DNA of 60,510 bases, taken from an uncultured Candidatus Saccharibacteria bacterium. Lineage in GTDB: Bacteria; Patescibacteriota; Minisyncoccia; Phycocordibacterales; SBAW01. The notes beneath the pieces are model-generated. The model had not been told where the DNA came from. It ran no database searches and was given only the letters and a program-made list of their open reading frames with translations. Below, piece after piece: positions 9,419 through 55,220 of the stretch. Both the position numbers and the translations under genes were made by a program. Position 1 is the stretch's first letter, and every line of letters begins with the position of its first letter. The stretch is from contig CAYWFM010000002.1 in the NCBI GenBank assembly GCA_964457915.1, positions 1 through 60,510 on the forward strand, given 5' to 3'.

Positions 9419-9541
9419 GGAGAAGGCCGCCGAGCGGCTCCCTGTTATCCACACGAAGAGGGGTGGGGTGTCGCTAAGGGTCGTATACTAGTAGTGTCTG
9501 CGCTTTCATTATTAAGCAGATTAATAGTTATTAATTGATTT

Positions 9542-10069
9542 ATGCATAAATCTGTTACAAAGGGCTTCACCCTTATCGAACTCTTGGTGGTTATCGCCAT
9601 CATCGGTATTTTGGCCTCCATCGTGCTTGTGTCTCTTAACAGCGCTCGTACCAAGAGTCGTGATGCAAACCGCGTCGCCTCCCTCGGTGAAATGGCAAAA
9701 GCTATCCAGGTTGCTGATATTGACCCAGCACCAGCAATTACCGGTTGTACAACCGCTGGTGCAAAGGCAAATACCTGCACAGGTCCAACTCCAGTTGCTT
9801 TCTCCAATTATGGCGATCCATCAGTGGGTACTGGTGGTACTGCTTGCGCCGTTGCTACAGCTGCAACAGCAGGTTCAGCGGCTTGCCAATATTCGATTGG
9901 TCAGGCTGGTACCGCGGGTGCAGCATTCGTTGCAGCTCCAACTACGCAGAACTATCGCATCTGCAGCATTCTTGAAGGCGGCAATACTTCATACGGCGGT
10001 ACGGCGGCTACCTTTGGTGCAGTCCACGTAGGTTCTGATACCGGAGGTTCGGTCATCGCAGGCTGCTAA
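9542..10069 (+). CDS. type IV pilin, paralog 1 (candidate major pilin)
   Basis: Class III signal MHKSVTKG|[24 protein letters not shown] (the Glu5 equivalent is present). It has its own terminator at 10091-10127 and a C-terminal [12 protein letters not shown]. Confidence 0.9.
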
Positions 10070-10090
10070 TCTCGTCCTTTCTGGTGTTGT

Positions 10091-10127
10091 AGAAATCCCC
10101 AGCTCAAAGCTGGGGATTTCTATTTTT
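10091..10127 (+). terminator. rho-independent terminator after pilin 1
   Basis: Hairpin AGAAATCCCCAGC-TCAA-GCTGGGGATTTCT followed by ATTTTT. Confidence 0.8.
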
Positions 10128-10190
10128 GAGGTACAATTATGTGCGAAGGTCTCCGTTCATCTCGTATTATTTGGTGACTATTAATTATGT

Positions 10191-10742
10191 ATGCATAAAT
10201 CTGTTACAAAGGGCTTCACCCTTATCGAACTCTTGGTGGTTATCGCCATCATCGGTATTTTGGCCTCCATCGTGCTTGTGTCTCTTAACAGCGCTCGACA
10301 GAAAAGCCGTGATGCTGCGCGTGTTGCGTCTCTAAAAGAAATGGCTAAAGCTATGCAAGTTGCTGATGCTGATCCAGCCCCGTCTCCTACCGGTTGCTAC
10401 ACCAGTGGTACGCGGTATGTGAATGCAAACGGCTGTAAGGGCCCAGTCCCTATAGTGTTTGGTAAGTACTCTGACCCTACTGTGGGTGGTTCAGGAACGG
10501 TCTGTCAGGGTACTGCGGGTACAATATCTACCGCGCCTTGTCAGTATGCTATTTCTAAAGTAGACGGAACGGCACCAACTACAAACACAGCTGGTACTGC
10601 AACTTCTATCACCACACAGAGCTGGGAGATTTGTACTCTTCTTGAAACAGGTAATGTTACCTATGGTGGTGCTATCGCAACCAACGGTATGGTGCGTGTA
10701 GGTTCAGACACAGGAGGTGCTGTCCGTGCGGGGTGCAATTAA
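10191..10742 (+). CDS. type IV pilin, paralog 2
   Basis: The first 107 nt are identical to pilin 1 (9542-9648 = 10191-10297). The centre is divergent and the C-terminus ([13 protein letters not shown]) is conserved. Confidence 0.9.
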
Positions 10743-10756
10743 TCTCTGTGTAAATC

Positions 10757-10794
10757 AAAGAAATCCCCAGACTGAGCTGGGGATTTCTTTTTTT
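10757..10794 (+). terminator. rho-independent terminator after pilin 2
   Basis: Hairpin AAAGAAATCCCCAG-ACTGAG-CTGGGGATTTCTTT followed by a T-run. The stem sequence is related to the pilin-1 terminator. Confidence 0.8.
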
Positions 10795-10813
10795 GGGAGT
10801 ATACTAACGCTAT

Positions 10814-11401
10814 ATGAAAACGTTTACAAAGGGCTTCACCCTTATCGAACTCTTGGTGGTTATCGCCATCATCGGTATTTTGGCCTCCATCGTGCTGGTA
10901 AGTTTAAACCAAGCGCGAAGTCGTGCTCGAGATGCAAACCGCATGGCGTCTCTTGAGCAAATGGGTCGGTTTATCGCAATAAACGACTCTGATCCGTTCA
11001 GTAGTTTTTGGACTGCTGCGGGCGATCCTGCTGCGCTGCCAGGGTGTGCGACTGAATATTGCAGTATCTCTGATGTTGTTGAAGGTCCTATGTCGATAGG
11101 CCGAGATGCGACCACCTCAATTGCTACTAATTTTCAGCTGTTTATTGATCCAACCGCAGGAACCTCCTCGCCAGCGTGCCTTGGTGCAACTGGCGGCCCT
11201 GCCGACCCTCCAGGTACGGTGTGTGGCTATTCTATGTCTCGTATAGACAATGAAAACCCAACAGGTAGCGCTACAGGTAATCCCGACTCTCAACACTATC
11301 AAATTTGCGCAATGCTCGAGGGTAGCATTGGTGGCTATGGCGCGGGGTTGGTGCATGTTGGTTCTGATACCGGCGGCTCAGTGCAGCCTGGATGCAACTA
11401 A
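10814..11401 (+). CDS. type IV pilin, paralog 3
   Basis: Signal MKTFTKG|[24 protein letters not shown]. It shares 73 identical nt with the pilin 1/2 N-terminal coding region and has the C-terminus [13 protein letters not shown]. Confidence 0.9.
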
Positions 11402-11409
11402 CGATATCT

Positions 11410-11952
11410 ATGCGCGCTAGGCTGCAGAGAGGGTTTACGCTCATAGAGTTGCTCACCACCATAGCGGTGATAGGTGTTTTAGCCTCTATAATTATGGTCT
11501 CTCTAGTAACCGCTAGGGCAAAAGGGCGTGACGCGCAGCGCATAACAGATTTGAAGAATATTGAGATAGCGCTCAGCTCGTATCGTCTTGAGAAAGGGTT
11601 TTATCCATCAACCCTTGATCCAACGATAAAGTGGTTTAGTAATTGTCCTATTGCGGGCGCGTGGGGGAAGGGGGATTTGCCTAACACGGGTGACACTGGG
11701 TGGATACCGGGACTTGCGCCAACCTTCATGCAGCAACTACCAAACGACCCAACTCCTAAGACCGATCGGTGTTATATGTACGTGTCTGATGGCAAGAACT
11801 ATATGCTGCTAGCTCATCAGACGGTAGAGACTTATACCGAAGCAACCAACCCATACCCCCGCCCACTAAGTCTGACAGGTACCACCTGCTTGGTAAGATT
11901 CTCCTATGAAAATACATTCGCGCTGTATACGCCGGGCGCACGCTGTTGGTGA
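11410..11952 (+). CDS. type IV pilin-like protein, paralog 4
   Basis: Signal MRARLQRG|FTLIELLTTIAVIGVLASIIMVSL. The ATG at 11410 is preferred over the ORF-track ATG at 11392, which overlaps the end of pilin 3. Confidence 0.8.
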   Translation: MRARLQRGFTLIELLTTIAVIGVLASIIMVSLVTARAKGRDAQRITDLKNIEIALSSYRLEKGFYPSTLDPTIKWFSNCPIAGAWGKGDLPNTGDTGWIPGLAPTFMQQLPNDPTPKTDRCYMYVSDGKNYMLLAHQTVETYTEATNPYPRPLSLTGTTCLVRFSYENTFALYTPGARCW

Positions 11953-11964
11953 TATAGTAAGGCT

Positions 11965-12540
11965 ATGAGTATTCGCTCTTATTTGAGTAGAGGTGTGTGG
12001 GGGAAGGGATTCACGTTGGTGGAGCTTCTTACCGTTATTGCTATTATCGGCATCCTTTCCTCGATTGTGATGGTCTCGCTCCTCACGGCACGTCAAAAGG
12101 GTAGAGATGTTAAACGCATTGCTGATGTTAAGCAGATTCAGCTTGCCCTTGAACAGTACTATAACGAAAACCTTTCATATCCAAACGGCCTGAGTAATTT
12201 ACAACCTACATTCATGCCCGTTGTGCCCAAAGATCCACTAACTGGCAGTGACTACATATATGTGGCGGCAAACGCCTTGGGTACAACAAACTGCACGAGC
12301 AATAAGGGTATTATGTATCACCTAGGTGCAGTGATGGAGATACAGGGCACGCTGGGAGCTGGCAACTACCAGCAGGTACCTGGGCGCTACAATAGTTGGC
12401 AGGCTAATGTGTGTGGCGCTACGGGTAACGATTTTAACGGAGCATCGATTGGCTGTACCACGACCTATGATGCGGCAAACCAAAACAAAAATGCAGCGGT
12501 GGGTACCGCGACGACGTGCTACGACGTGATTAATCAGTAG
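11965..12540 (+). CDS. type IV pilin-like protein, paralog 5
   Basis: Leader ...GVWGKG|[24 protein letters not shown], 191 aa. Confidence 0.85.
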   Translation: MSIRSYLSRGVWGKGFTLVELLTVIAIIGILSSIVMVSLLTARQKGRDVKRIADVKQIQLALEQYYNENLSYPNGLSNLQPTFMPVVPKDPLTGSDYIYVAANALGTTNCTSNKGIMYHLGAVMEIQGTLGAGNYQQVPGRYNSWQANVCGATGNDFNGASIGCTTTYDAANQNKNAAVGTATTCYDVINQ

Positions 12541-12544
12541 CATT

Positions 12545-13321
12545 ATGACTCTACTGTATACGCTCGCAACTTTTTTGCTCGGATGTATCTTGGGCAGTTT
12601 TCTTAATGCGGCACTCTTTCGTTTTAATACGGGTAAGTCGGCGCTTAAAGGTCGCTCGCGCTGTATGCACTGTGGGCATACGCTACATGCAGTCGATCTG
12701 GTACCGGTGGTGTCATATCTGTTATTGGGTGGTCGTTGCCGCTATTGTGGTTCGCGTGTTTCGTGGCAGTACCCACTGGTTGAACTCTTAGGAGGGCTGC
12801 TCTCTGTGGCTCTTTTTGTTTTATTTTATTCCCAACCAGTGTGGTATCTTTTTTGGCTCGTAGTGTGGTTCTTGGTGCTCTTTATTGTGGTATACGATGT
12901 GCGGCACATGATTATCCCATGGTCGGCCTCGCTCCCGCTTTTGGGGTTAGCCATCGGCTTTGTGTTGGTGCAGTCTGTCCTCCCGCTACCGACTGTGAAT
13001 TGGATGATACTTACCGCTGGCCCGCTTCTCGCGTTCCCGCTCTTTTTCATATCACTTATTTCACGCGGTCGATGGATGGGGTGGGCGGACAGTCTTTTTG
13101 AACTCTCCCTGGGTTGGCTGTTGGGGCTAACGCAAGGCCTTACAGCACTCATGCTCAGTATTTGGCTTGGTGCTGCGGTGGGGATTGTTGTTCTTCTGCT
13201 CACAAAGCGGGTTACAATGAAAAGCGAGATCCCGTTCGCGCCGTTTTTGGCGCTCGGCGCGGCGCTCAGCTTCTTCTTACATGTCGATTTTTTTAGCACC
13301 CTCCCACTCCTCTTCCACTAA
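12545..13321 (+). CDS. pilD: prepilin peptidase (A24 family) PilD
   Basis: 258-aa polytopic protein with an N-terminal CxxC...CxxC domain (RCMHCGH...CRYCG), as in prepilin peptidases. Confidence 0.9.
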   Translation: MTLLYTLATFLLGCILGSFLNAALFRFNTGKSALKGRSRCMHCGHTLHAVDLVPVVSYLLLGGRCRYCGSRVSWQYPLVELLGGLLSVALFVLFYSQPVWYLFWLVVWFLVLFIVVYDVRHMIIPWSASLPLLGLAIGFVLVQSVLPLPTVNWMILTAGPLLAFPLFFISLISRGRWMGWADSLFELSLGWLLGLTQGLTALMLSIWLGAAVGIVVLLLTKRVTMKSEIPFAPFLALGAALSFFLHVDFFSTLPLLFH

Positions 13322-13904
13322 GACAGGCTTTACGCTCATCGAGTTGCTCGTGGTCTGTTTTATAATCGCTGTTCTCTTTGTGATTATTATCCAAAGTCTA
13401 ATCGCCGCACAAATTAAAACTCGTGACGCACAACGTCTCAAAGATCTCGATACGATCCAGGCTGCTGTCGAGCAGTACTATCGCGATAATGGACATTACC
13501 CCGTAACGAAGTGTTCAAATAACGCATCGGTGTGGTCAAGTTTTGATAGTCCAACGTATAAGACCACCACCATTTGTGCTGCTGCTAATGGGGCAGGAGT
13601 AAACACGCTCGGCCCAGAGCTGGCGACCTATCTGATTGATTACACAAGAATGAAAGACCCGCTTCCCCCCGCGTCGACTGATGCAGGGTATCTGTATCGC
13701 TCTGACGACGGAGCGAGTTACTGCATACTCGTATGGCGCACACCTGAAAACATGAACAATTTCCCAGCAAGCCGGTACATACACGCAGGGTCTCGCTGTG
13801 CAGGAGGAGTGAACAGTTCAGGTCAATGCACGAGCAGTTCAGGAGTCGTGGATAGTTCAAACAATCTTTTTTATGGAATTGGGACGTTCGCCGGTAGCTG
13901 TTAA
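13281..13904 (+). CDS. pilin-like protein (minor pilin candidate)
   Basis: Leader ...SSSTKTG|[17 protein letters not shown]. The ORF overlaps the pilD 3' end by 41 nt, so the exact start is uncertain. Confidence 0.7.
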   Translation: MSIFLAPSHSSSTKTGFTLIELLVVCFIIAVLFVIIIQSLIAAQIKTRDAQRLKDLDTIQAAVEQYYRDNGHYPVTKCSNNASVWSSFDSPTYKTTTICAAANGAGVNTLGPELATYLIDYTRMKDPLPPASTDAGYLYRSDDGASYCILVWRTPENMNNFPASRYIHAGSRCAGGVNSSGQCTSSSGVVDSSNNLFYGIGTFAGSC

Positions 13905-13909
13905 CTCGT

Positions 13910-14641
13910 ATGCATAGAATACACTACAAACAAACTGGTTTTACCCTCATCGAGCTTTTGGTGGTGCTCGTTATTATGACCCTCATGACGTTGGCGTTTA
14001 TCAACAGCCAGTCAAAGTTTGACTCGGGTACCATTATGCGTGGGCTTGCATACCAAGTCGCGCTCACCATTCGTCAAACGCAGGTCTACGGCACCTCTGT
14101 GATTCAAAATAGTCCGGGCGCGGCATCTTTTGGCCCTGTGTTTGGTGTTTCATTTGGGAATGGGGCAAACGACTATTTCATCTTCTCCGATCCAATAGTG
14201 CCTCCAAAAGGTGAGATGGATGCAGGAGTGGTCAGGCTAAAAACGTTCACCGTCCAAAGCAATTTCTCAATTCAGGAAGTGTGTTTGGTAAGTACTGAAA
14301 GTTCGAACAATTGGTATTGTAGTGTACGACGCGACACGGGTACTACTGACGACTCAACAACGCCAAGCAGTCGCCTTGATGTGCTCAATATCTTATTTAA
14401 ACGCCCCAACCCTGACGCACTCTTGGCCGCATACAAGAAAGATGTTGGTGGCGTCCTGCAACCTGCGACTGCAGCAAGCGGAGTATTTAAAGCTGCCTAT
14501 GTACAGCTCAAAGCTATTAATGGCGATGTGCGGGTGGTGCGCATCACCTTGACGGGCCAGGTGACAGTCTGCGGAGTTGGGAATCTTGCCGGTACCGGTG
14601 TGACCATTACTCGTCTGAAGGCAACACCAACCTTATGTTAA
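13910..14641 (+). CDS. minor pilin-like protein (GspH/FimT-like)
   Basis: Leader MHRIHYKQTG|[18 protein letters not shown], 243 aa. Confidence 0.75.
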   Translation: MHRIHYKQTGFTLIELLVVLVIMTLMTLAFINSQSKFDSGTIMRGLAYQVALTIRQTQVYGTSVIQNSPGAASFGPVFGVSFGNGANDYFIFSDPIVPPKGEMDAGVVRLKTFTVQSNFSIQEVCLVSTESSNNWYCSVRRDTGTTDDSTTPSSRLDVLNILFKRPNPDALLAAYKKDVGGVLQPATAASGVFKAAYVQLKAINGDVRVVRITLTGQVTVCGVGNLAGTGVTITRLKATPTLC

Positions 14642-15243
14642 GTATGCAAAAAGGATTTACCTTGGTTGAAATACTCGTATCGGTTGCGCTCTTTAGTCTG
14701 GTTATGGTCGTGGCTCTGGGAGCGCTGCTCACCCTCTCAACCGCGACCCGCAAGGCTACCTCGATAAATACTGCGGTCGACACACTGGGCGCCGCTGTTG
14801 AAAGTATGACACGTACCATGCGCACGGGGCTTAACTACGATTGTGGTCTCGCGAGCGTTGCTATCAGTCCTGTCCCGGTTAACTGTACTTCGTCGGGAGC
14901 AACAGCAATTGCGCTTCATGCGGTTGATGGTTCGCGGGTGTCTTATTGTCTTGGCACTGCTGCTAATGTGTGTAACTCCGCTGGCACCGTACTATTAAGA
15001 AACGTCAGTACCGGGAGCCTCGCAAACTCGTGGGTGCCGCTCACGACGCCAGAAATAAAAATTACGAATCTACGGTTCTATGTGGAGGGTACCTGTTCTG
15101 CGGGAGGGATCGGGGGGTGTGTGCCCGATACGACACAGCCGAAAATTTCCATACTCCTCTCGGGTACCTATCAGGTGACCACTAACCAAACAAGTGAATT
15201 TCATATACAAACAACCGTAACGCAGCGCTTATATGATCAATAG
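14635..15243 (+). CDS. minor pilin-like protein
   Basis: Leader MLSMQKG|FTLVEILVSVALFSLVMVVALGAL. It overlaps the upstream gene by 7 nt, consistent with translational coupling. Confidence 0.75.
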   Translation: MLSMQKGFTLVEILVSVALFSLVMVVALGALLTLSTATRKATSINTAVDTLGAAVESMTRTMRTGLNYDCGLASVAISPVPVNCTSSGATAIALHAVDGSRVSYCLGTAANVCNSAGTVLLRNVSTGSLANSWVPLTTPEIKITNLRFYVEGTCSAGGIGGCVPDTTQPKISILLSGTYQVTTNQTSEFHIQTTVTQRLYDQ

Positions 15244-15794
15244 TATGCGGACACTTCTTTCCCCAAAAGCATTCACGCTCATAGAGACGTTGGTTGCGAT
15301 ATTTATCCTCATGACGGCGGTCGTGGGGCCCCTCTCCATTGCTGCCAAAGGTCTTCAAATTGCGCTGATTGCAAAAGACCAGACAACCGCCGTGTATCTC
15401 GCGCAAGACAGTATCGAGTTTGCTCGGTATTTGCGGGACACCTCGTGCCTTACAGGTGCACCGTTGGGGAATTGCAGTGGGTCGGTGGCGTTTGACCCAT
15501 TTTTAAGTGGCGGGGTGTGCTCAGGCACAAAGGGGTGTCGCATTGATTCTATAACAAAAACGGTTACCAACTGCGCAAGTGACGGCGCCACCTGCCGCTC
15601 GCTTAATTATGACACCACGAATGGGTGGTTCACCTACGGCGCAACGAGCGCCACTATTGTGCCGACCGTGTTTACACGAATGCTACAGGTGTCGCTAGCG
15701 CCAGGTAAGGCCGATGAGCTAGAGGTGACCGCTCAAGTTTGGTGGGATGATATTGGAGGGGTAACACACACTATTACTGAACAAGAAAATTTTT

Positions 15795-15808
<14 letters not shown>
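15233..15808 (+). CDS. minor pilin-like protein (PilV-like)
   Basis: Leader ...LLSPKA|FTLIETLVAIFILMTAVVGPL, 191 aa. It overlaps its neighbours. Confidence 0.7.
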
Positions 15809-18397
<2,589 letters not shown>

Positions 18398-20935: not shown

Positions 20936-20999
20936 TCCGCCTTCGCATAAGCTTCGGCGGGACAATGTCCGCCGTGGCTCAAGCTATGGCGGGACGATG
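20936..20999 (+). repeat. two tandem 32-nt hairpin repeats abutting tRNA(CAT)-2
   Basis: TCCGCC-N14-GGCGGGAC(A/G)ATG occurs twice, at 20936-20967 and 20968-20999. The stem arms are conserved and the loops differ. Confidence 0.75.
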
Positions 21000-21072
21000 T
21001 CGGCGTAGCTCAGGTAGTTAGAGCATGGGACTCATAAACCCAAGGTCGGAGGTGCAAGTCCTCCCGCCGACA
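20999..21072 (+). tRNA. tRNA with CAT anticodon (elongator Met or lysidine-modified Ile2)
   Basis: Acceptor GTCGGCG/CGCCGAC, D arm GCTC-AGGTAGTTA-GAGC, anticodon loop CTCATAA, T arm GGAGG-TGCAAGT-CCTCC, discriminator A. No CCA is encoded. Confidence 0.85.
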
Positions 21073-21234
21073 CAAAAACGAAGTTTTTGAGCGCGAGCAA
21101 AATGCCTGCGCATTTTGCGTGGAGGACTTGCAAGGCACAGCGATGCTGAGCCAGCGGGCGAGGCCGCGAGCCGGGGCCGAGAAAATTTTGCTGCAGCAAA
21201 ATTATTCGTGGCCAAGCCTCCCGCCGACACAAAA
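21073..21234 (+). mobile_element. tRNA-3'-end-associated conserved non-coding element, copy 1 (ends in an 18-nt duplicate of the tRNA 3' end)
   Basis: Direct repeats CCTCCCGCCGACACAAAA at 21060-21077 and 21217-21234. The 78-nt core at 21139-21216 is 69/78 identical to 31230-31307. A perfect 20-nt palindrome lies at 21184-21203. Confidence 0.6.
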
Positions 21235-21339
21235 GTTGCCGCTAATGGGTATTCGTGTCTTCCTAGTATTTGCCGTTGCACAACGAGCAAAGTGCTCATA
21301 TAGTGTGGGCGTGAATTGGGCTACTAGGTAGAACTCCTC

Positions 21340-24300
21340 ATGCACCATATTTTTCATACAACAAGGCCGCTGGTGTTCAAAATAGCAATACTTTTTGTTA
21401 TTTTTTCGATAGCTTTTTCTCCTGTGGTATCTGTGTATGCGCAAACGACCACGCCAATAAGCGAATTGCCACCGCCTTCAGTGGCGACGAACACGCCAGA
21501 CACTCCAACTCTGTCACTGCCGGTAGATGCTGGTGCTTCAGAAAGAAATATTTCTCCTGTAAATTTTGAAGCACCTACTCCACAAGTGCAGCCAGGCGCA
21601 CCCGGGGGTAATGAAAAGGCACTTGTCCCAGAATCGGCTGCTGCAGCCAACACAAACGAAGGCGCTGGTGTGGGGACTACTTTAAACAGAGCGGGCACCT
21701 TTTCAACCCAAAGTGCTGTCGATGAGACAGATAGTTTTAGTGGACTAGTCTCCACTCAAAATCCTTCGGGTCCTGACTATATGTCTGGTGCCGTAACATA
21801 CTCAGTACCTATAGCGATACCTCCTGGGCGCAATGGTATGCAGCCTAACGTGCAACTCACGTATAACAGTCAAAGGGCAGATCAATCTTCCATCGTCGGC
21901 TACGGGTGGGAATTGTCCATACCATATATTCAACGTCTTAATAAACAGGGGTGGGATAGTATCTATGATGAAGACGATTACTATTCGTCATTGAGTGGTG
22001 ATTTGGCAACCACCTCTGTCCTTGGGACTTTTCAGACCCGATCTGAGGATGGGCAGTTTCTCCAATACACATATGCAACCACCACCGGTTGGACAGTCAA
22101 AGATAAGAAGGGAGTAGTATACACTTTCGGTTCAAGCACCCTTGCTCGACAAGACGATCCTGCGAATCCCTCACATGTTTATAAATGGATGCTTACAGAA
22201 GTGCGTGACAGTAACGGCAATTTCGTTACCTATCAATATATTAAAGATGGTAACCAGATATATCCCTCAACCATTACCTATACCAATTCTGCTTCATCGA
22301 CAGGTATATTTAGTATCGAATTTTCACGGGAATCGCGACCAGATAATGCAACTTCCACCTACCTTGGTGGCTTTGGTGTAAAAAGTGCATATCGTATTTC
22401 TGAAATTATTTCCAAGGTTAACGGTGTGTGGACTCAAAAATACACCCTTGCATATTTAGCGGGTGATAATGGGCGGCGCTCGCTGCTCGCAGCTGTCACA
22501 CAATCAGGCCAAGATGAAAAGGGCGTGCTTACCACACTGCCGCCCACCACGTTTAATTATCAGTCTTCAACTACGACCAAGGGGTGGGTGGAGAATCCTC
22601 AATGGGGACTTCCTATCGGTTTAGCTTTGCCGAGCGTTTTCCTTTCTGATTACTCTGGCGACGGGTTGCTAGATGTAATTTATCAGCTAGATGATCTCGC
22701 TGATTCGCCAAACGCTCATGCAAAACTCAACCTAGGAACGGGTAACTGGAGTGAAGCCTCTACGACATGGTACGAGCCGGGGTATATGGGTGTTCCTGGT
22801 TGGCGCATGGGCGACATGAACGGTGATGGTTGGTCAGATGCTGTTTATAGTTCAGACGACCCCATGTTCACTTTTAATCGAGTATATATAAACGTTGGGG
22901 CAGGATGGGTGCTTAGCACGAGCACGGTGCCTATACCGTTTAATAACGCAAAAAGTACATTCCTTATTGATGTAAACGGTGATGGTCTTTCTGATGCGGT
23001 ACAGTCGTATACAAGTGGGCAAGAGATTTTGCAATATAATCGTGTGTTTATTAACGATGGAAACGGTGGTTGGATGGATGAAAGTACCACAACATGGCAA
23101 ATGCCCCCACTATATATGAATGCATACGGCAATCGTATGTTTGATGTGAATGGTGACGGTCTGCCAGACATCTTGCGCAAAGATAATACCACTGGTGACA
23201 ATCGGACTTATATAAACACAGGGCATGGATGGATATATGACGAAGCATGGAGCCATTTGCCGCGATTAGTGGATCCCGGAGCGTGGTTCATTGATGTTAA
23301 TGGAGACGGTATTCCAGACATACTATTTTCGGCCGACTATGGTGGCACGGCACAGTACGAGGAGGCATATATAGGTGATGGGTATGGGGGTTTTAACTTA
23401 GACACAGGATGGGTGCCACCTTTGCGATTGATGGGAAAGTACAACATGCCGGTTGACCTGAACGGGGATGGTATGCCAGACATGCTCGATTCATTTAATC
23501 TGACGGTTCGGCTTAATAAAGCTCTCAAGGCAGATCTTCTCTCGCAAGTCACGACACCAACGGGGGCAAAAACGTCATTCGGATATAAAATGACCACCGC
23601 GTACCGCGACGTGTCGGGGGGTATGCTCAATCCGCATTTGCAATATCCATTACTTACCGTTAACACGATCACGACGAATGATGGATTTGGGAATGTAGCC
23701 ACAACTACCTATGAATACAAGGATGGAGTTAACTACTATGCGAGCGCTTTTGATCATCAGTTAGGGGGATTTGGTCTTGTGACCAAGACGGATACTTTTG
23801 GGAATGTCACCAAAACATATTTTCACACCGGTGGTGGTACTGATGCGGCGCACGGCGAATATGCAGACTCGCGATATAAAATAGGGAGGGCGTATCGGAC
23901 AGAGGTGTATGATGACGCCAACCGTCTGTATAGCAAAACCATATATAGATGGGACAGTACTCCCGTGAGTACTAATGCAGCTTTTGTGTATCTGGCGCAA
24001 GCTGTTGAATCATCCTATGACGGTGGGTCCACACACAAAGATAGTGCCGAGCAATATACGTATGACTCCACAGGGAACCTTACACTTAAAAAACAATATG
24101 GGCAGGTACAAGGGAATGATGATGGGACATATGGCGATGTGGGGTCTGATCTTGTATCAACCACGTACACCTATGCGGCTAACGGATCGACCGCAACAGG
24201 TTTTTTGGCTAGCGCTTTAGTGCAGGATCAGAGTAGTACTAAAGTCCGCGAAGCTCGCTACTACTATGACAATCTCTCTTTAGGTAGTGTAACCGTTGGC

Positions 24301-27300
24301 AATCAAACCAAAGGGGAGGATTGGATATCAGGCTCACTGTATGCCTCTACTACTAAGACCTATGGCATGTATGGATTTGTGGTGGGAGCGACAAATCAGA
24401 GTGGAGGGGTGACGACGTATGTGCCGGACACGTACTACTTGTACCCAGCCACTACCACTAATCCGCTGAACCAATCGACGAGCTACCAGTATAACTATGC
24501 TCTCGGAAAGGTGATACGTGCTGTAGATCCTAATGGCAGCGTGAGTACGACGACCTATGATGGATTAGGCAGACCTCTTTTTATTGGAGTTACAGATCCA
24601 CAAACTGGCGCTTTAGTAACACGCACCGTGTACGCATATACCGATAGTGCTACGCCAGGGGGCACTAAAGTTGCACAAACCGACTACCAAACAGCCGCGA
24701 CGAGCACGGCAACCTATACCTATTTTGATACCCAAGGTAAGCCAGTCCAAAAAAGAGTCCAGGTGGGTGGGAATAATACGTACGCGATTACTGACACTAT
24801 ATACAACAGGCTTGGATTGGTTGGTTTGCAGAGTTTGCCATACTTTGCCTCAAGTACCGGCCGGACAGGCGCCACCACAACAATCGCTTTGTACTCGACA
24901 TACTTCTACGATGCTCTTTGGAGAGTGATAAAAGTAACTGATGGAGTCGGAAGCACTACCTATACATATAAACCTTGGCAGACGACTGTTGTAGACCCTC
25001 GCAGTAACCCAAAACTACTGCAGTATGATGCGTATAAAAATTTAGCAACGGTGGTTGAGTTTAACGCCACCTCTACAGGCACTACTACGTATGCCTATGA
25101 TGCGAGCAATAATCTAGTGAATGTTACTGATGCGCAAGGTAACACTCGTGCGTTTACGTATGATGGGCTAGGGAGGCGGACATCAGCACAAGATTTACAT
25201 GCGCCAGGCGACCCAACTTTCGGCACATGGGCGTACGTTTATGACGCTGCAAATCTTCGCCAGTCGGTGGATCCAAAAGGTCAGGTGGTCAATTACACTT
25301 ACGATGTGCTCAACCGCCCACTTACCGAAGATTACACAGGCTCGCCCGGCACTGAGGTACTCAATACCTATGACAGCTGCTCGAAAGGTATAGGGCAGCT
25401 CTGTGCAGCAAGTTCTACCTCGGCCTACATAACCTACACATACAACCCGCTCGGGTTGCGCGCGAGCGAAACAGCAAAGATTGTGGGTACTACTACGACG
25501 TTTACTACGTCATATCTCTATGACCAAATCGGGAATCAAACATACATAACCTATCCCGACGGATCAAAAGTGCAGTATGTATATACCTCAGGTAATCAGA
25601 TAGATGCTGTGTTTGAAAAAGAAGGAGGTGTGGGCACCGCAACCACTACTATAGTGAGCAAATTCACCTACGCTCCTACGGGGGATATTGCCACCGTGCA
25701 ATATGGCAACGGAGCAACTACTACCAATAGGTATGATGCAAACACTCTGTACAGATTGGCTAGCAGAGTAACCGCAACACCGACCGCTGGGCGTGCACAA
25801 GATCTGACCTATACCTACGACACGGTGGGGAATATCACCCAAATCACGGACGCTTCAAACTCTGCGACCAACAAAGTAGTTAGATATGCATATGACGCTC
25901 TCAATCGACTCACCGCAGCATCAACGACCAGTGCAACAACAACCCCTGATTACAGCTATAGCTATACCTATGACAAACTCGGTAACATCACGAGCGGGCC
26001 CGCGGGTGTATATGCATACTTGGGCAATGTTGGCTCTACCTATGCAAACCCACATGCGCTAACGGCGCTCTATGTAGCTACTTCAACGCGACTTGCAGAT
26101 ACTATTGCGACCTCAACTATTCTTCTTGAGTCTACATCAACGAATATATCTTCCGGCCTTACAGGCACGACCACAAAAACATGGGTGCACCCGACAGTAT
26201 CAAGCAAGGCGCTCGTGGTTCTTTCTGCAGAAATCCTTGGGCATGTTGTCGGAGGAGGGTTTGTGGGATCTTCAACATGGAACGGGAGCCCCCTGGGCCG
26301 TATTCGGTATACTCGTAATGGAGTTATTAACACAGAGGTGTGGTATACCGTCGCTACGACAAGTGGCCCAGGTGTCTTATCGGTAAATATTACGGGAGAC
26401 TCAGATGCTATCAAACTCAACGCTGCATCTTTTGTGGGGGTTGCGACAACTTCACCCTTGGTCGCCTCGAATGTAGTCGGGGGGAGTAGTGGGAATCCGC
26501 CAATTGCGCTCCCTATGACCCCTAAAAATGCTCTGGTGGTGGCTGTGCTCACCCGCAACTCAACCACCAGTGCTACAACCAATCGCACTGCTATTAGTAA
26601 TGACACAACAGGCCCGATACTGAGCGCATCGAGTTATCAACTGGCGACCACTAGTGGGACGACTACTGACACTTACACTGGGGCGGCGGCACAAGGTTGG
26701 ACTATGATCATGGTCGCGTTTAAAGCGGCTACTACGACTGTGTTTGGTGGCTTTGGTACAACAACGGCTACCACCACCCTTGTGTATGACCAAAATGGCA
26801 ACTTGCTTAGTGAGGGTGTCTCTACCTACGCATGGGACTACAAAAACAGATTGGTTCAAAGTGGAGACGGAGTCGCAACTTCGACCTATGGGTATGACCA
26901 GAATGGTACTCGAGTAAAAACAGTTGAAAAAGGATATACGACTCTGTATCCAAACAAGCTTTACAATGTGATGCTTGGAGGAAACGCAACCACCACCAAG
27001 CACATCTTCGCAAACAATCTGCTGCTCGCGACTGTTGAGAACATCGCGGCGCCACTCAGCGGTTGGGTGAGTACTTCGACCATCGCCATCGCTGCAACCT
27101 CAACTAATGTTACGGTTGGTTTCGCAAGCTCCACGGTGCGCACATGGACGCATATGGTCACAGCGCCAAACTCGCTGGTAGTGTTGTATGCAGATATTCT
27201 CCAAAATACTGCTACAGGCACGGTGAGCTCTGCCACACTCAATGGCGCCGCCTTCACAAAGGCTACCTCGACGCTCCAGGGGACCATGGACGCCGAGCTT

Positions 27301-28683
27301 TGGTACGTACTAGCGATCACCTCAGGATCAAAAACAGTAGTTGTAAATGTGGCGGGTAATACCAATGCAATTAAACTCGCCGCTGCCTCCTTCATCGGCA
27401 CAACTCTCGTTAATCCTCTGGGCAACACCACAAAAGCAGTAGGCACCACCGGCTCTCCCACCATCAGCATCACCCCTGCGGCTAAAACCGACCTCCTAAC
27501 GACAACACTCTCGCGCAATGGCACGAGTGATGCTACCTCTACCGCTCTTTCAATATACAAAGACAACCTCATCGCAACCCTGGGCGCTGCAAGCTACCAG
27601 TTTGCCACCACCACTAAGGCATATACCGACACCTACCTCGGTGCGACAACCACCAACTGGGCTTTGGTAGCAGCCACCTTCAAACCTGCCACCACTACCG
27701 TAGGAGCAGTAGCAACCTCCACCCTGCGCTACTTTGCTACCGACAATCTCTCTGGCGCCAACGTTGTCATGGATACCACAGGCACCATAGTCGAAACTCT
27801 CGACTACTACCCATATGGTGCGCTGCGTATTGATACCAAAGCAGGAGCCTATACCGGAGAGAAGCGTAAATATGCAGGTACTGAGTACGACGCGGGTAGT
27901 GGATTAAACTACATGAATGCGCGTTACTACGAGGGGTCTCGCGGTCAGTTCCTTTCACAGGACCCTGTGTTCTGGGAAGTGGGCCAGACTAAGGACGGCA
28001 TAAGAGCTTTATCAGACCCTCAATCAATGAACAGTTATTCTTATGCGGGCAATAATCCGATCACTCAAAGTGACCCAAATGGCCGTTGGTATAAGGAGTT
28101 CGTAACTGGCCAACAATCCTTCTCGAGTTTCTATGGTGAAGTCGGCGAAGCGGCAAATTATCTTGGTCAAAGTAGTCCGGCATGGAATTATGCAATGAAT
28201 AATCCATATACAACCGGAGCGGTAGTTGGAGTGGGTTCAGGACTTGCAGCATACGGTGCGTCAGCAGCACTAACATCACTTAGCGTAGATGCTCTTTCGG
28301 GAATCGGAACTCGATCCATGGGAAATCTGTCTAGATTGGAGTCTCTTCCTCAAACAACGCAAGTACCGGGTAAGCTTGATCTTCTTTCACAACAAACTGG
28401 AAAATCTGTTGGCCAATTACTACAAGAAGCTTCACAAAGCGGTAAACCTTACATCGATTTCCGTAACGGGGGGAATATAAATATCCTTAATCAAAGCGGA
28501 TTGCCAAACACACTTAGTCGCATTACGACAAATCCTCAAATTACAAAAATTATTTCAGCTGGGCGTATGGAAACCTCGCAGGTGTCAAATCTGGTAAGAT
28601 CGGGTAACATGCAAGGTCTCCAATCAACCTTGTCGGGCCTGTCTAAGGTTCTTGGACAAATATCAAAATTATTGTCAAAATAG
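21340..28683 (+). CDS. RHS/YD-repeat polymorphic toxin (WapA/TcB-TcC-like) with Sec signal, SpvB-like N-domain, FG-GAP/VCBS repeats, RHS core and variable C-terminal domain
   Basis: 2447 aa. It has a signal-like N-terminus (IAILFVIFSIAFSPVVSVYAQ), an SpvB-type motif (SGAVTYSVPIAIPPGRNGMQPNVQLTYNS), repeated D.NGDG.(P/S)D motifs and many YD repeats (YTYDGLGR, YAYDALNRL). The RHS core reads YYPYGALR...GTEYDAGSGLNYMNARYYEGSRGQFLSQDP...DPNGRW. Confidence 0.9.
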   Translation: MHHIFHTTRPLVFKIAILFVIFSIAFSPVVSVYAQTTTPISELPPPSVATNTPDTPTLSLPVDAGASERNISPVNFEAPTPQVQPGAPGGNEKALVPESAAAANTNEGAGVGTTLNRAGTFSTQSAVDETDSFSGLVSTQNPSGPDYMSGAVTYSVPIAIPPGRNGMQPNVQLTYNSQRADQSSIVGYGWELSIPYIQRLNKQGWDSIYDEDDYYSSLSGDLATTSVLGTFQTRSEDGQFLQYTYATTTGWTVKDKKGVVYTFGSSTLARQDDPANPSHVYKWMLTEVRDSNGNFVTYQYIKDGNQIYPSTITYTNSASSTGIFSIEFSRESRPDNATSTYLGGFGVKSAYRISEIISKVNGVWTQKYTLAYLAGDNGRRSLLAAVTQSGQDEKGVLTTLPPTTFNYQSSTTTKGWVENPQWGLPIGLALPSVFLSDYSGDGLLDVIYQLDDLADSPNAHAKLNLGTGNWSEASTTWYEPGYMGVPGWRMGDMNGDGWSDAVYSSDDPMFTFNRVYINVGAGWVLSTSTVPIPFNNAKSTFLIDVNGDGLSDAVQSYTSGQEILQYNRVFINDGNGGWMDESTTTWQMPPLYMNAYGNRMFDVNGDGLPDILRKDNTTGDNRTYINTGHGWIYDEAWSHLPRLVDPGAWFIDVNGDGIPDILFSADYGGTAQYEEAYIGDGYGGFNLDTGWVPPLRLMGKYNMPVDLNGDGMPDMLDSFNLTVRLNKALKADLLSQVTTPTGAKTSFGYKMTTAYRDVSGGMLNPHLQYPLLTVNTITTNDGFGNVATTTYEYKDGVNYYASAFDHQLGGFGLVTKTDTFGNVTKTYFHTGGGTDAAHGEYADSRYKIGRAYRTEVYDDANRLYSKTIYRWDSTPVSTNAAFVYLAQAVESSYDGGSTHKDSAEQYTYDSTGNLTLKKQYGQVQGNDDGTYGDVGSDLVSTTYTYAANGSTATGFLASALVQDQSSTKVREARYYYDNLSLGSVTVGNQTKGEDWISGSLYASTTKTYGMYGFVVGATNQSGGVTTYVPDTYYLYPATTTNPLNQSTSYQYNYALGKVIRAVDPNGSVSTTTYDGLGRPLFIGVTDPQTGALVTRTVYAYTDSATPGGTKVAQTDYQTAATSTATYTYFDTQGKPVQKRVQVGGNNTYAITDTIYNRLGLVGLQSLPYFASSTGRTGATTTIALYSTYFYDALWRVIKVTDGVGSTTYTYKPWQTTVVDPRSNPKLLQYDAYKNLATVVEFNATSTGTTTYAYDASNNLVNVTDAQGNTRAFTYDGLGRRTSAQDLHAPGDPTFGTWAYVYDAANLRQSVDPKGQVVNYTYDVLNRPLTEDYTGSPGTEVLNTYDSCSKGIGQLCAASSTSAYITYTYNPLGLRASETAKIVGTTTTFTTSYLYDQIGNQTYITYPDGSKVQYVYTSGNQIDAVFEKEGGVGTATTTIVSKFTYAPTGDIATVQYGNGATTTNRYDANTLYRLASRVTATPTAGRAQDLTYTYDTVGNITQITDASNSATNKVVRYAYDALNRLTAASTTSATTTPDYSYSYTYDKLGNITSGPAGVYAYLGNVGSTYANPHALTALYVATSTRLADTIATSTILLESTSTNISSGLTGTTTKTWVHPTVSSKALVVLSAEILGHVVGGGFVGSSTWNGSPLGRIRYTRNGVINTEVWYTVATTSGPGVLSVNITGDSDAIKLNAASFVGVATTSPLVASNVVGGSSGNPPIALPMTPKNALVVAVLTRNSTTSATTNRTAISNDTTGPILSASSYQLATTSGTTTDTYTGAAAQGWTMIMVAFKAATTTVFGGFGTTTATTTLVYDQNGNLLSEGVSTYAWDYKNRLVQSGDGVATSTYGYDQNGTRVKTVEKGYTTLYPNKLYNVMLGGNATTTKHIFANNLLLATVENIAAPLSGWVSTSTIAIAATSTNVTVGFASSTVRTWTHMVTAPNSLVVLYADILQNTATGTVSSATLNGAAFTKATSTLQGTMDAELWYVLAITSGSKTVVVNVAGNTNAIKLAAASFIGTTLVNPLGNTTKAVGTTGSPTISITPAAKTDLLTTTLSRNGTSDATSTALSIYKDNLIATLGAASYQFATTTKAYTDTYLGATTTNWALVAATFKPATTTVGAVATSTLRYFATDNLSGANVVMDTTGTIVETLDYYPYGALRIDTKAGAYTGEKRKYAGTEYDAGSGLNYMNARYYEGSRGQFLSQDPVFWEVGQTKDGIRALSDPQSMNSYSYAGNNPITQSDPNGRWYKEFVTGQQSFSSFYGEVGEAANYLGQSSPAWNYAMNNPYTTGAVVGVGSGLAAYGASAALTSLSVDALSGIGTRSMGNLSRLESLPQTTQVPGKLDLLSQQTGKSVGQLLQEASQSGKPYIDFRNGGNINILNQSGLPNTLSRITTNPQITKIISAGRMETSQVSNLVRSGNMQGLQSTLSGLSKVLGQISKLLSK

Positions 28684-28687
28684 CTAT

Positions 28688-28972
28688 ATGGATACCGTTA
28701 AAAAACTAATCGATTCGTTTTTAGGTCAGGAAATAACCCTTGATGATTTTTTTAGTTCCATTAGTAAGTTTTACGCGCCCGATAGTCTAGAATGGAAGAA
28801 TTTGACCCAAGAGGAACAAGACTTCATATATGAAATCTATGAAAAGGCAACGTATGCTGCCGACGGGCTTTCCAAAGCTGACCCTGATAGAAAATATGGA
28901 GTTATCGATCAAGATGACTTCAAGAAATGGCTAGGTGAAATAAAAGAGAAGAATATCCAGTTCTGGAAATAG
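28688..28972 (+). CDS. small acidic protein immediately downstream of the RHS toxin (candidate immunity protein)
   Basis: 94 aa from the ATG at 28688, 5 nt after the RHS stop. It is AT-rich like the toxin tail. The function is assigned from position only. Confidence 0.5.
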   Translation: MDTVKKLIDSFLGQEITLDDFFSSISKFYAPDSLEWKNLTQEEQDFIYEIYEKATYAADGLSKADPDRKYGVIDQDDFKKWLGEIKEKNIQFWK

Positions 28973-28979
28973 ATCGATA

Positions 28980-29210
28980 ATGAAATACAGTGAATTTGCC
29001 CTGCCTTTACTAGCATTTGCATTAGGGGTTTGGCTTTTGATCCAGATTAAAAATGAAGTGGAAACAGGTGCACTTCGATTGAAAAGTGGAGGAAAAACTT
29101 ATCGAAAGGAACACCCAAATCAGTTTTTATTTGGAATAGTAATACAGAGTGTAATCGCAGGAATTCTCATCATATATCCGCTGGTGCATTTTTCGTTTCT
29201 TTTTCTTTAA
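28980..29210 (+). CDS. small two-TM membrane protein (alternative immunity candidate)
   Basis: 76 aa with two hydrophobic helices (LPLLAFALGVWLLI; FLFGIVIQSVIAGILIIYPLV). It starts 8 nt after the previous stop. Confidence 0.4.
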   Translation: MKYSEFALPLLAFALGVWLLIQIKNEVETGALRLKSGGKTYRKEHPNQFLFGIVIQSVIAGILIIYPLVHFSFLFL

Positions 29211-30169
29211 GTGAGAACAGTGGCACATCTTTCATCTTTCTTTTGCTTGATCCAATCATAGAATTGAAATCCATTACACTGATTCGAGTGCCACCTGTCT
29301 TTTTCCAAAATTGAGCCATTCGTTCAGCCCACTCGATTTCAGTAGTGATTTTGTATTCAATCTTTGTAGTTTCGATCTCTCCATCGTCATTTCGTTCTCC
29401 AGATTTTACAGGAACATAGCCGTGTGGCTCGACTAGATTCTTGTAGTAGACAACATGGTCGACAAAGTCTAAGAAGAATTGCCGATATGTCTCGAAGTCT
29501 TTGCATTGTTGAAGTCGTACCCTGATCTCATCGCAGTATTGAGCAATACTCAGTTCGATCGCTGCTGGTTTATGTAGTAAGGGTATCCGCTTTACCAGAT
29601 CCAACTTCTCGTTAGCCAGTTCACTAATCTCCTTATCGTATTCAGCGCTCTTTTTTGCATACTCTGCCCGTTCGGCACCACCATTAGCATAGAGTTCAAG
29701 AATTCGTTTTTTTAGCAATACTGATAGCTCTTAGTCTGGTTTCTATCTTTCCGAGATGGCGCTGTAGTCGCATTTGAGATGCGCGTCCATCACTTTTGAA
29801 GATATCCATGTGCTTCTTGAGTGTCTCCGGTTTTACAACTTCTTCTCTAAAAAGTTTGTAAACTTTCTCCTCAAGGATTGATGTTTTTATTTCATTGTTG
29901 TCGCACTTCCGAAGATTCGACTTTTTGGAATGCTGTAATATTCGGATTGTCCAATTGCACTTGTACGATGCTCGGTGATAGACCTTGTGCGGAGTACTTC
30001 GTTTATCGACGTAATAGCGGCGGTATGCATAACAGCTTCCGCCGCATCCTCCACACCGAATCAGGTTTGATAGTAGTTGCGGTATTCGTGGGTTGCGATA
30101 TTTCTTCCTGTAGTAGTCAATTTTATCTTGAACCTTATTGAACAACTCCTTGGAGATAATCGGAGGCAC
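29170..30169 (-). pseudogene. large serine recombinase remnant (5'-truncated, frameshifted)
   Basis: Two overlapping - ORFs (29696-30169 and 29170-29718) together encode a recombinase-domain end, a Zn-ribbon (CGGCGGSCYAYRRY...YKCN) and a coiled-coil tail. The N-terminal resolvase catalytic domain is absent, and an in-frame TAA lies immediately upstream of 30169. Confidence 0.6.
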
Positions 30170-30296
30170 TTAAAAAGCAATTACAAGCAAGCACCAGGGA
30201 TCCGGGTAGACCTAAAATATTATGACACAAAACATGTAAATAAAAGGTGACTGACCCTATTGACTATTGATGGCTTTGGAGGGAAATGAAGAGTTT

Positions 30297-30536
30297 TTAT
30301 CTAAATAGTTCTAAAAAACCAAATCCTAGCAAAATAATAGACACTAACACGATTACCATTCGAACATAGACGCTATCCATGTTGTCTGCTTGAAACTTGA
30401 ATACTTTCAAACCAGTTCGAAGATAACAATGATTAAGAAGTTTAATCGAGATTTGTATAAAAGTATTTGAAAAGATAAGTAATAGTAAAGCAATTGTGAT
30501 GTTTATAAGTGAATCTAAATTATTTAATGTAAACAT
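30297..30536 (-). CDS. small hydrophobic ORF in AT-rich DNA
   Basis: 79 aa with two hydrophobic segments and no recognisable family. Confidence 0.25.
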   Translation of the reverse strand: MFTLNNLDSLINITIALLLLIFSNTFIQISIKLLNHCYLRTGLKVFKFQADNMDSVYVRMVIVLVSIILLGFGFLELFR

Positions 30537-30676
30537 ATATTTTGCTATTAAAAATTAATCAGTCCTAACATCTTATGATCTCACGCCGATTCTACCACTT
30601 TAGTGGGGACAGATATCAATAAGTGACGAAAATTGTTGTGTATACTCAAGAGAGTTATTAGGTAAACGTATACGAT

Positions 30677-30922
30677 ATGCATACAAGACTTGTGATGGCG
30701 AGTGCAGGGGCCGCGCTACTACTTACTATGGGGGTCACGACAATAGCAGCAGCACAGATTACGCCAGGAGGTGGGGATGTGCCAGGGACTACTCAAGATT
30801 GTAAAAATGGCGGCTGGGTCACTCTGAGCGATGGTTCATCGTACTTTAAAAACCAGGGTGACTGTGTAAGTTATGTCGCTACTGAAGGCAGTAATCTCGC
30901 TGCCGGAAACCCTGTCCTCTAG
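30677..30922 (+). CDS. small secreted protein
   Basis: 81 aa with a signal-peptide-like N-terminus (MASAGAALLLTMGVTTIAAAQ) and two Cys. It is followed by a strong terminator. Confidence 0.5.
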   Translation: MHTRLVMASAGAALLLTMGVTTIAAAQITPGGGDVPGTTQDCKNGGWVTLSDGSSYFKNQGDCVSYVATEGSNLAAGNPVL

Positions 30923-30960
30923 GAGGGAGAAGAGTTTAAGTGCGTTTGTGGGCACAGTGA

Positions 30961-30994
30961 GCAAAAACACCTCCGTAGCAGGAGGTGTTTTTGC
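30961..30994 (+). terminator. rho-independent terminator
   Basis: GCAAAAACACCTCC-GTAGCA-GGAGGTGTTTTTGC followed by a T-rich tract. Confidence 0.8.
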
Positions 30995-31055
30995 TATTTA
31001 TTTTTTGACATTTTTGCGCTAGAATGCTCCTGCCTGCCCCTTGGGGCTGGCATTT

Positions 31056-31129
31056 GCAGTGGTAGCTCAACTGGTTAGAGCACCCGCCTGTCACGCGGGA
31101 GGTTGCGGGTTCGAGTCCCGTCCGCTGCG
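31056..31129 (+). tRNA. tRNA-Asp (GTC)
   Basis: Acceptor GCAGTGG/CCGCTGC, D arm GCTC-AACTGGTTA-GAGC, anticodon arm CCCGC-CTGTCAC-GCGGG, T arm GCGGG-TTCGAGT-CCCGT, discriminator G. No CCA is encoded. Confidence 0.9.
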
Positions 31130-31322
31130 CTAGCGATAAAACCGAGTAGTTTTTACTACTCGGTTTTGCGCTTATGCGGGCAGCGGGAGAAACTGAACTT
31201 CTTCAGTTTCGCCGGGACTTGAAAGCCGGAGCGATGCTGAGCCAGCAGGCGAGGCCGCGAGGCAGGGTCGTGAAAAATTTGCTGCAGCAAATTTATTCCT
31301 GGCCGAGTCCCGTCCGCTGCGC
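31130..31322 (+). mobile_element. tRNA-3'-end-associated conserved non-coding element, copy 2 (ends in a 19-nt duplicate of the tRNA-Asp 3' end)
   Basis: Direct repeats CGAGTCCCGTCCGCTGCGC at 31112-31130 and 31304-31322. The core at 31230-31307 matches 21139-21216. A perfect 20-nt palindrome lies at 31275-31294. Confidence 0.6.
31138..31167 (+). terminator. rho-independent terminator after tRNA-Asp
   Basis: AAAACCGAGTAGT-TTTT-ACTACTCGGTTTT. Confidence 0.75.
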
Positions 31323-53363: not shown

Positions 53364-53437
53364 TGGGAGATCGTCTAATGGTAGGACAACAGACTCTGAA
53401 TCTGTTTATCTAGGTTCGAATCCTAGTCTCCCAGCCA
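53364..53437 (+). tRNA. tRNA-Gln (CTG), CCA encoded
   Basis: Acceptor TGGGAGA/TCTCCCA, anticodon loop CTCTGAA, T arm CTAGG-TTCGAAT-CCTAG, discriminator G, CCA at 53435-53437. Confidence 0.9.
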
Positions 53438-54318: not shown

Positions 54319-54437
54319 GTTCCAACTTCCCTCCTTCGCCAAGGCTACGGGCGGGCGAGCTATCCTTCGAATCCTCTCAGGACCTACGGCCAGAGGGCCA
54401 GCTCGACTTTTTTATAAAAGTGTTGTAATTTTGTTTT
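54319..54437 (+). repeat. ~120-nt intergenic repeat, copy A
   Basis: It aligns with 55075-55194 and contains an identical 35-nt block, GGCTATCCTTCGAATCCTCTCAGGACCTACGGCCA. It ends in ACTTTTTTATAAAAGT(G/A)TTGTAATTT. Confidence 0.8.
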
Positions 54438-55194: not shown

Positions 55195-55220
55195 TAGCTG
55201 AACAAGGAGACATCTAAAAT

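Follow-up and report, generated by a model that had tools for sequence, protein, structure and literature searches.

Why should the 3′ end of a tRNA gene be written a second time a short distance behind that gene, around a sequence that recurs with a different repeat behind another tRNA gene? The question is raised by a tRNA-Asp gene (GTC, no CCA encoded; 31056-31130, found by ARAGORN and by Rfam as tRNA with 70.2 bits) in the window, by which is meant the whole 60,510-nucleotide stretch of DNA analysed here; the two window copies described below, with their host tRNA genes, lie on the + strand. The last 19 nucleotides of the gene, CGAGTCCCGTCCGCTGCGC, run from C56 of the T loop to one base beyond the discriminator (31112-31130, DR1) and, exactly as had been predicted, are repeated at 31304-31322 (DR2, the tail). 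This sequence occurs nowhere else in the window, on either strand and with up to 3 mismatches, and 0/100 shuffles gave a match. The 173 bp between the repeats contain no ORF. Reading of the sequence and folding place a terminator-like hairpin, AAAACCGAGTAG/CTACTCGGTTTT (31138-31167), directly 3′ of the tRNA, followed by an antisense copy of the gene end (IR) that is split by a further hairpin: the distal part is GCAGCGG (31180-31186), the exact complement of the acceptor 3′ strand CCGCTGC; then comes hairpin 1, GAAACTGAA cttc TTCAGTTTC (31189-31210); and then CGGGACTTGAA (31213-31223), which is antisense to the T54-G65 region, is complementary to it at 10/11 positions (p=0.011 against shuffles) and ends at the complement of T54. 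The core consists of P2 (31225-31263), a conserved rod-like hairpin with a tandem G·A loop, an AU bulge and an AGCA loop, and P3 (31266-31303), a long hairpin with a conserved base, GGTCG/TGGC(C), and a variable tip. DR2 pairs with IR to form a closing stem, P1, in which GGGACTTG (31214-31221) faces CGAGTCCC (31304-31311) with one G·T, as anticipated.

A sister copy lies behind the tRNA-Met gene (CAT; 20999-21073, ARAGORN and Rfam). Its DR1 is CAAGTCCTCCCGCCGACACAAAA (21055-21077), hairpin 1 is CAAAATGC ctgc GCATTTTG (21098-21117) and IR is GGAGGACTTGCA (21121-21132), 12/12 complementary to the T loop and T-stem 3′ strand of tRNA-Met (p=0.003); the core (21134-21212; 91.4 bits) comprises P2 at 21134-21172 and P3 at 21175-21212, and DR2 (21213-21234) has a 1-nt deletion relative to the tRNA. 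A repeat finder gives 86% identity between 21124-21216 and 31215-31307 (family D3), and these two are the only copies within the window. The original prediction had drawn attention to nine differences between the cores, two of them paired, and this is what the alignment gives: 31230-31307 and 21139-21216 differ at 9/78 positions, with T at 21186 against A at 31277, and A at the mirror position 21201 against T at 31292. Both copies hold a perfect 20-nt palindrome (AATTTTGCTGCAGCAAAATT and AAATTTGCTGCAGCAAATTT), which in the Asp copy occupies 31275-31294 within P3 and includes CTGCAG.

The two copies have relatives elsewhere. Searches yielded 10 more distinct copies in other metagenomes and genomes, one divergent relative and about 30 additional traces at the protein level. 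The targets are tRNA-Asp (two), tRNA-Met, tRNA-Arg, tRNA-Trp, tRNA-Leu (two), tmRNA (two) and one site behind topA, and all copies at tRNA or tmRNA genes lie just 3′ of the gene and in the same orientation. Scanning at the DNA level was of little use. The pattern GCTGAGCCAGCNGGCGAGGCC gave 25 matches in species-representative genomes, all of them chance matches in GC-rich coding DNA; three scans of viral DNA (2.9 million viral contigs) gave 0, 0 and 97 matches, none real; blastn against a phage collection gave no match; and the single real match of the metagenome scan was a copy behind a different tRNA-Asp (L029). The scan patterns were too strict, because most relatives carry GCCGAGCC where the window carries GCTGAGCC. 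Gene prediction sometimes places an ORF on the strand opposite the element; the translation of this ORF (...FSRPRLAASPAGSASL...), used as a protein query, recovered copies behind tRNA-Arg (L038), behind a tRNA cut by the contig end (L039) and at a tmRNA gene (L040/L041). Searched with a profile, 1.84 billion representative proteins yielded 32 matches, most of which continue into antisense-tRNA peptides. A further search added L139 (NCBI Patescibacteria, GCA_038065315.1, a 680-kb contig) and L140/L141. A covariance model, R1, then detected another three copies in L140, of which one follows tRNA-Trp and two follow tRNA-Leu in tandem. L140 thus holds four copies within 20 kb, one of them behind topA with no tRNA nearby.

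Loci orthologous to the window through the downstream DUF4383 gene comprised one empty site (L032), one divergent element (L034, in a Parcubacteria genome) and several uninformative contigs. L034 has the same repeat layout behind tRNA-Met and a divergent core, and the fact that R1 does not detect it (E above 1) is the reason for treating it only as a probable distant relative. Inspection of L034:3084-3222 shows a full inverted copy of the T arm (GGGAGTCGAACCC) directly after tRNA-Met and a 19-nt tail, with a core that keeps only the motif GGAGCG...CGCGA. Rfam 15, searched with E up to 10, gave nothing credible on the element itself, the only gathering-level scores being to tRNA, to tmRNA and to a LOOT RNA elsewhere in L139; hammerhead, hairpin and other known ribozymes, tmRNA-like RNA and YrlA were considered and found no support there. 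No description of the family was found in full-text literature searches. The bacterium from which the window comes belongs to Patescibacteria (CPR), and all named hosts of DUF4383-gene homologues and of spurious ORFs lying over related elements are Parcubacteria or Patescibacteria. The family is apparently widespread in Patescibacteria (CPR) and undescribed.

The order of the parts is the same in every copy: a terminator-like hairpin of variable sequence, IR, the core (P2 then P3) and DR2; the hairpin before the core takes an equivalent position each time, with a different sequence. IR is an antisense copy of the 3′ region of the gene, from its trailer to T54, and ends at the complement of T54; an A or C follows, and then P2. 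It is significant against shuffles in 9/10 copies, matches at 18/18 positions in L139, and extends to 25-26 nt in the tRNA-Leu copies of L140, where it reaches the gene trailer. DR2 is a sense copy which starts exactly at C56 of the T loop in 9/10 copies and ends 1-5 nt beyond the gene. The duplication is 7, 9 or 19-23 nt long, 19-23 nt being the length in intact copies; in L038, the exception, no more than the last 7 nt of the tRNA are repeated, and the tail of L139 matches over just 9 nt. At the left the junctions read ...GAA(A/C)G and at the right ...TGGC/CGA, TGAC/CGA or CGGG/C (the slash marks the junction). With the conserved branching G of retrons in view, the IR/P2 junction was seen to read AAAGCC, CAAGGC or AACGCC, without an invariant AGC-type motif; flanking repeats are present. 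The arms vary from copy to copy and match the tRNA or tmRNA at each site. A tRNA-like gene with its own acceptor stem was also considered and set aside as a general feature, since clean 7-bp acceptor pairing is seen in the Asp copy alone.

Two further observations concern the surroundings of the tails. Both tRNA-Leu tails of L140 (6640-6665 and 6835-6860, - strand) carry an 18-19-nt GC palindrome hairpin at the same position, and the two palindromes are in a flip/flop relation, GCCTGCC-TGCC-GGCAGGC against GCCTGCC-GGCA-GGCAGGC, with the loop inverted. In L038 (about 800-885, - strand) 13 nt identical to the 5′ start of a downstream tRNA-Val (GCGCGGTTAGCTC) occur a second time about 60 nt before that gene, just after the element tail.

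A closing stem that failed to persist in other copies would have undermined the original prediction. A stem matched to the local tRNA or tmRNA is in fact present in most copies, and the IR/DR2 pairing is better than that of shuffled tails in the four copies with intact tails (5-15/500 shuffles as good), and not in two decayed ones. The idea that this stem arose by compensatory evolution is not supported by the data, however: one strand is an antisense copy of the host-gene 3′ end and the other a sense copy, and each drifts independently once inserted. In the window Met copy T60 is absent from DR2 alone, and in L029 only IR is altered. Since IR and DR2 deviate from the tRNA independently of one another, the stem is a legacy of the insertion event and is not maintained afterwards.

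The behaviour of the core is different. P2 is a 12-bp rod around the tandem G·A loop, and 12/12 pairs hold in six copies through compensated changes, GCG/CGC becoming AGA/UCU and GCC/GGC becoming GGC/GCC and then GAC/GUC; RNAalifold independently yields the same fold. In the tRNA-Trp copy the upper half of P2 is missing. Over P2 and P3 together, in 12 distinct model-aligned sequences, 95.4% of cells are paired and 16/26 pairs show two-sided changes. None of 500 shuffles reach these values, and controls in which the strands were slid are only 32-54% paired. Because this alignment (A9) was fitted to the model, the pair counts are inflated in favour of the structure; the P2 result came from a manual alignment and is independent of it. 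MAFFT shifted L039 by one column, for which reason manual and model-based alignments were used instead. Palindrome positions varying without compensation in a larger alignment would have refuted the original prediction; the 12-sequence alignment showed instead that the pairs of P3, and those of P2, are kept through many two-sided changes. A G·U pair stands at the base of P3 in 8/12 sequences, where the opposite strand would have A·C; folding is thus confined to the + strand. At the tip P3 is free to vary, and among the copies only those in the window have the CTGCAG palindrome.

The claim had been that conservation of structure over sequence argues for a functional hairpin or a dimeric-protein binding site, and not for neutral debris. 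Its two halves fare differently. That the pairs of P2 and P3 are kept, and that the closing stem recurs, establishes a conserved single-strand structure which is not debris. A dimeric protein bound to duplex DNA is made less likely by the replacement of the palindrome tip in other copies and by G·U pairs that exist on the + strand only. The possibility that P2 is conserved because it holds arm-type protein sites, with GCGAKGC as direct repeats, was rejected, L039 having AGA/UCU for GCG/CGC and L038 GAC/GUC for GCC/GGC.

A strand-specific, covarying structure is also what would be expected of a functional small RNA, mobile or not, that is co-transcribed with the tRNA and binds the (pre-)tRNA or tmRNA through its antisense segment, at the T loop and 3′ half. 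Another possibility is that the IR/DR2 stem mimics the acceptor/T-arm top half of a tRNA, to be recognised by a tRNA-binding protein such as the CCA-adding enzyme or an enzyme of tRNA processing. L029 and L034 have no terminator between tRNA and element, and promoter prediction gives the window copies none of their own; GCAGCGG/CCGCTGC and CGGG/CCCG form, in the Asp copy, a tRNA-like stack of acceptor and T-stem; and the antisense match to tmRNA in L139 is still 18/18 in spite of its decayed tail. However, strong terminator-like hairpins precede the window Asp, L039, L040 and L139 copies, the element is present only sporadically among relatives, copies decay (L038, L039), one has no tRNA neighbour, and IR and DR2 do not co-evolve by compensation. 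A small RNA is an unlikely explanation.

The distribution of the copies bears directly on mobility. In the relative L032, whose DUF4383 protein is 68% identical, tRNA-Met and tRNA-Asp are 42 nt apart and both sites are empty, and L034 has an element after tRNA-Met only. The cores of L029 and L040 are near-identical and GC-rich, and yet the loci differ in GC content (53% against 37%) and in target (tRNA-Asp against tmRNA). Copies can be arrayed, as in the tandem pair behind tRNA-Leu in L140 and in an array seen at the protein level with a 174-nt period in which each unit has its own tail, and they also decay, L038 and L039 being examples. No free, circular or excised form was seen. The object is best read as a mobile element family and not as a locus-specific RNA gene; leaving aside the enzymology, the feature probably belongs to a family of Patescibacteria elements that are miniature (about 100-200 bp), structured, mobile and non-autonomous and encode no protein. 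As a separate observation, two translations of the antisense ORF (P0025 and P0036) contain two diverged cores separated by only about 100 nt, without an intervening tRNA tail, an arrangement that none of the insertion models predicts.

A direct repeat from T loop to gene end is the classic attL/attR signature of genomic islands, and the feature could be a scar: what is left, at one end, of a larger island or prophage that carried an integrase, occupied the tRNA gene and has since mostly been deleted. Real islands do use these genes, as shown by a 7.6-kb serine-recombinase island in the tmRNA gene of L139. It is nevertheless hard to see how such remnants could account for at least 10 independent copies that are uniformly small, none with cargo or integrase, with a core under structural selection, with tandem small units, and with no copy in the 2.9 million viral contigs or the phage collection. 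We regard the scar as very improbable.

The L139 island has features of its own. It lies at 10191-18167, about 7.6 kb, in the 3′ end of the tmRNA gene (17778-18167, - strand), adjoining smpB. Within it are the large serine recombinase (16229-17821), an AAA_15/AAA_21 ATPase and a tRNA-Arg. A tmRNA fragment, CATCTCCACAA, marks its end near 10191, and the island has moved the small element 7.6 kb from its tmRNA gene. The LOOT RNA (Rfam RF03000, 85 bits; 15080-15201, - strand) lies within it.

For the mobile element family, the end state in the DNA equals insertion between T55 and C56 of a piece made up of the gene 3′ end, hairpin, IR and core. The inserted piece carries its own gene 3′ end and terminator, and so the tRNA remains intact while the old 3′ end is displaced. 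How this state is reached can only be inferred. Pairing of IR with DR2 would recreate the duplex of the gene 3′ end as a stem capped by the core, and a trans-acting enzyme could act on this folded single strand to insert the element at the T loop. Integron attC and the CTXφ attP(+) hairpin are recombination sites that work as folded single strands, and it is the resemblance to these, with an inverted copy about 90 nt from a direct copy and a strand-specific conserved fold, that puts in the lead, as a tentative guess resting on analogy, a model in which the folded strand undergoes site-specific recombination and the enzyme is encoded elsewhere. As in those sites, the inverted and direct repeats of the target fold into a stem imitating a duplex, structure is conserved over sequence, one strand folds, and arrays occur. 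Unlike in attC, no GTTRRRY/RYYYAAC boxes were visible at the junctions read (by eye, without a pattern search) and no IntI or other integrase was seen in the window. Unlike in both attC and CTXφ attP, the stem takes its sequence from the host tRNA and the conserved part is the apical domain, not the stem; and the target is the T loop, not dif-like, where CTXφ-type attP (of IMEX) uses host XerCD at the dif site.

Closely related cores sit on different targets (tRNA-Asp against tmRNA; tmRNA against the site behind topA), which is hard to account for by a carried, target-specific recombination site and is the weak point of the folded-strand model. If IR and DR2 were written from each new target, this difference would be explained better than by the folded-strand model. 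One way of writing them is a reverse-transcriptase route, target-primed synthesis with snap-back copying of the target, which as an alternative enzymology is possible but doubtful. The fuller proposal is a retroelement-like non-autonomous unit, in which a bottom-strand nick at 55/56 would prime a reverse transcriptase to copy the core RNA, snap-back then making both copies of the target. It accounts for IR and DR2 being target-specific even where the cores are closely related and for the variable duplication length (7, 9 or 19-23 nt), and the layout is like that of a retron non-coding RNA, with inverted repeats (the retron a1/a2) closing a short conserved and a long variable hairpin, as in msr-msd, over about 100-150 nt. 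However, no reverse transcriptase gene was found near any copy, nor is there an adjacent effector gene; the variable hairpin region between tRNA and IR is left unexplained; direct evidence of an RNA intermediate is absent; and, unlike in retrons, the flanking repeats are tRNA-derived and the element is multi-copy and arrayed. In this specific form we consider it quite improbable.

Alternatively, the antisense segment may be a true guide: a core of about 90 nt, as RNA or single-stranded DNA, would with an unknown enzyme pair with the T loop and 3′ half and insert at 55/56, a fresh antisense and sense copy being written at each new tRNA or tmRNA target. This too is unlikely on present evidence. 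If it were correct, the family would represent a new class of non-autonomous mobile element that is guided by nucleic acid, with a core that is possibly self-cleaving or self-ligating. Some observations fit poorly whichever model is taken. The 18-nt hairpin in the tRNA-Leu copies of L140 and the 9-nt match in L139 are both awkward for reading the tail as the displaced gene end, and the flip/flop palindromes, that 9-nt tail and the core arrays of about 100-nt period without tails remain unexplained by any of them.

Comparison with other known systems places the outcome, and the boundary at C56, in the T-loop class of tRNA-gene integration, while the target-copying architecture is distinctive. 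A T-loop sublocation is reportedly used by integrase-driven islands and prophages in tRNA and tmRNA genes, as set out by Williams in 2002. The element is like these islands in its direct repeat from T loop to just beyond the gene 3′ end, in leaving the gene intact, in having filled and empty sites among relatives and in giving arrays by reuse of one gene; it is unlike them in measuring 100-200 bp and not kilobases, in having no integrase or cargo, and in adding an antisense copy of the target and a conserved, covarying core of two hairpins. With MITEs, REPINs and CIMEs it shares a small, protein-less, multi-copy and hairpin-forming constitution dependent on an enzyme encoded elsewhere, but its arms are copies of the target and not conserved terminal repeats, no target duplication of fixed length is made, and it targets tRNA and tmRNA genes at their 3′ ends. 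Genes for tmRNA serve as integration sites for islands, and group I introns, on average about 290-410 bp, occur in the T loop of tmRNA genes (PMC11915505). The element is like these introns in entering at the same few T-loop nucleotides and in having a guide-like segment that pairs with the exon; the introns interrupt the gene and have a group I catalytic core, whereas the element leaves the gene uninterrupted. No Intron_gpI match to the element was obtained at E up to 10 and 5, and the tRNA is intact by ARAGORN and Rfam.

Patescibacteria have tiny genomes in which few mobile elements have been recognised. Here a small structured element is present in many of them, several per genome, at the most conserved RNA genes, and it occupies tRNA and tmRNA genes without a resident integrase and without harm to the gene. 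The antisense arm matched to the target hints at recognition by base pairing; if that is true, the core and an unknown enzyme could constitute a compact reprogrammable insertion system. The element also has consequences for annotation: it interrupts metagenome assemblies at tRNA genes, seeds spurious ORFs (at least 45 clusters in public protein sets) and produces tRNA-fragment calls, and annotation needs a model of the family.

The window itself is ordinary chromosome, with type IV pilus genes, ligA, a PF01425 amidase, a release factor, pyrG (CTP synthase), an efflux pump and a B12-type ribonucleotide reductase. Of the roughly 37 window ORFs scanned, none was found to encode a recombinase, a transposase or a reverse transcriptase, and no such gene was found beside most other copies; the genes neighbouring copies are DUF4383, a giant ORF, topA and smpB, with no adjacent reverse transcriptase gene. 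The interval from tRNA-Met to tRNA-Asp (21235-31055) is 9.8 kb here against 42-172 nt in the relatives L032 and L034, and contains a 2447-aa ORF (21340-28683) and a few small ORFs; this block may be an insertion. Downstream of tRNA-Gln two repeats were noted, 53432-53473 with 55512-55553 (74%) and 54319-54437 with 55075-55195 (82-91%). Finally, a tandem repeat of 3 units of about 650 bp lies at 9538-11401, downstream of pilM/N, pilB/T and pilC-like genes, and its first ORF has a pilin-type N-terminal methylation motif.
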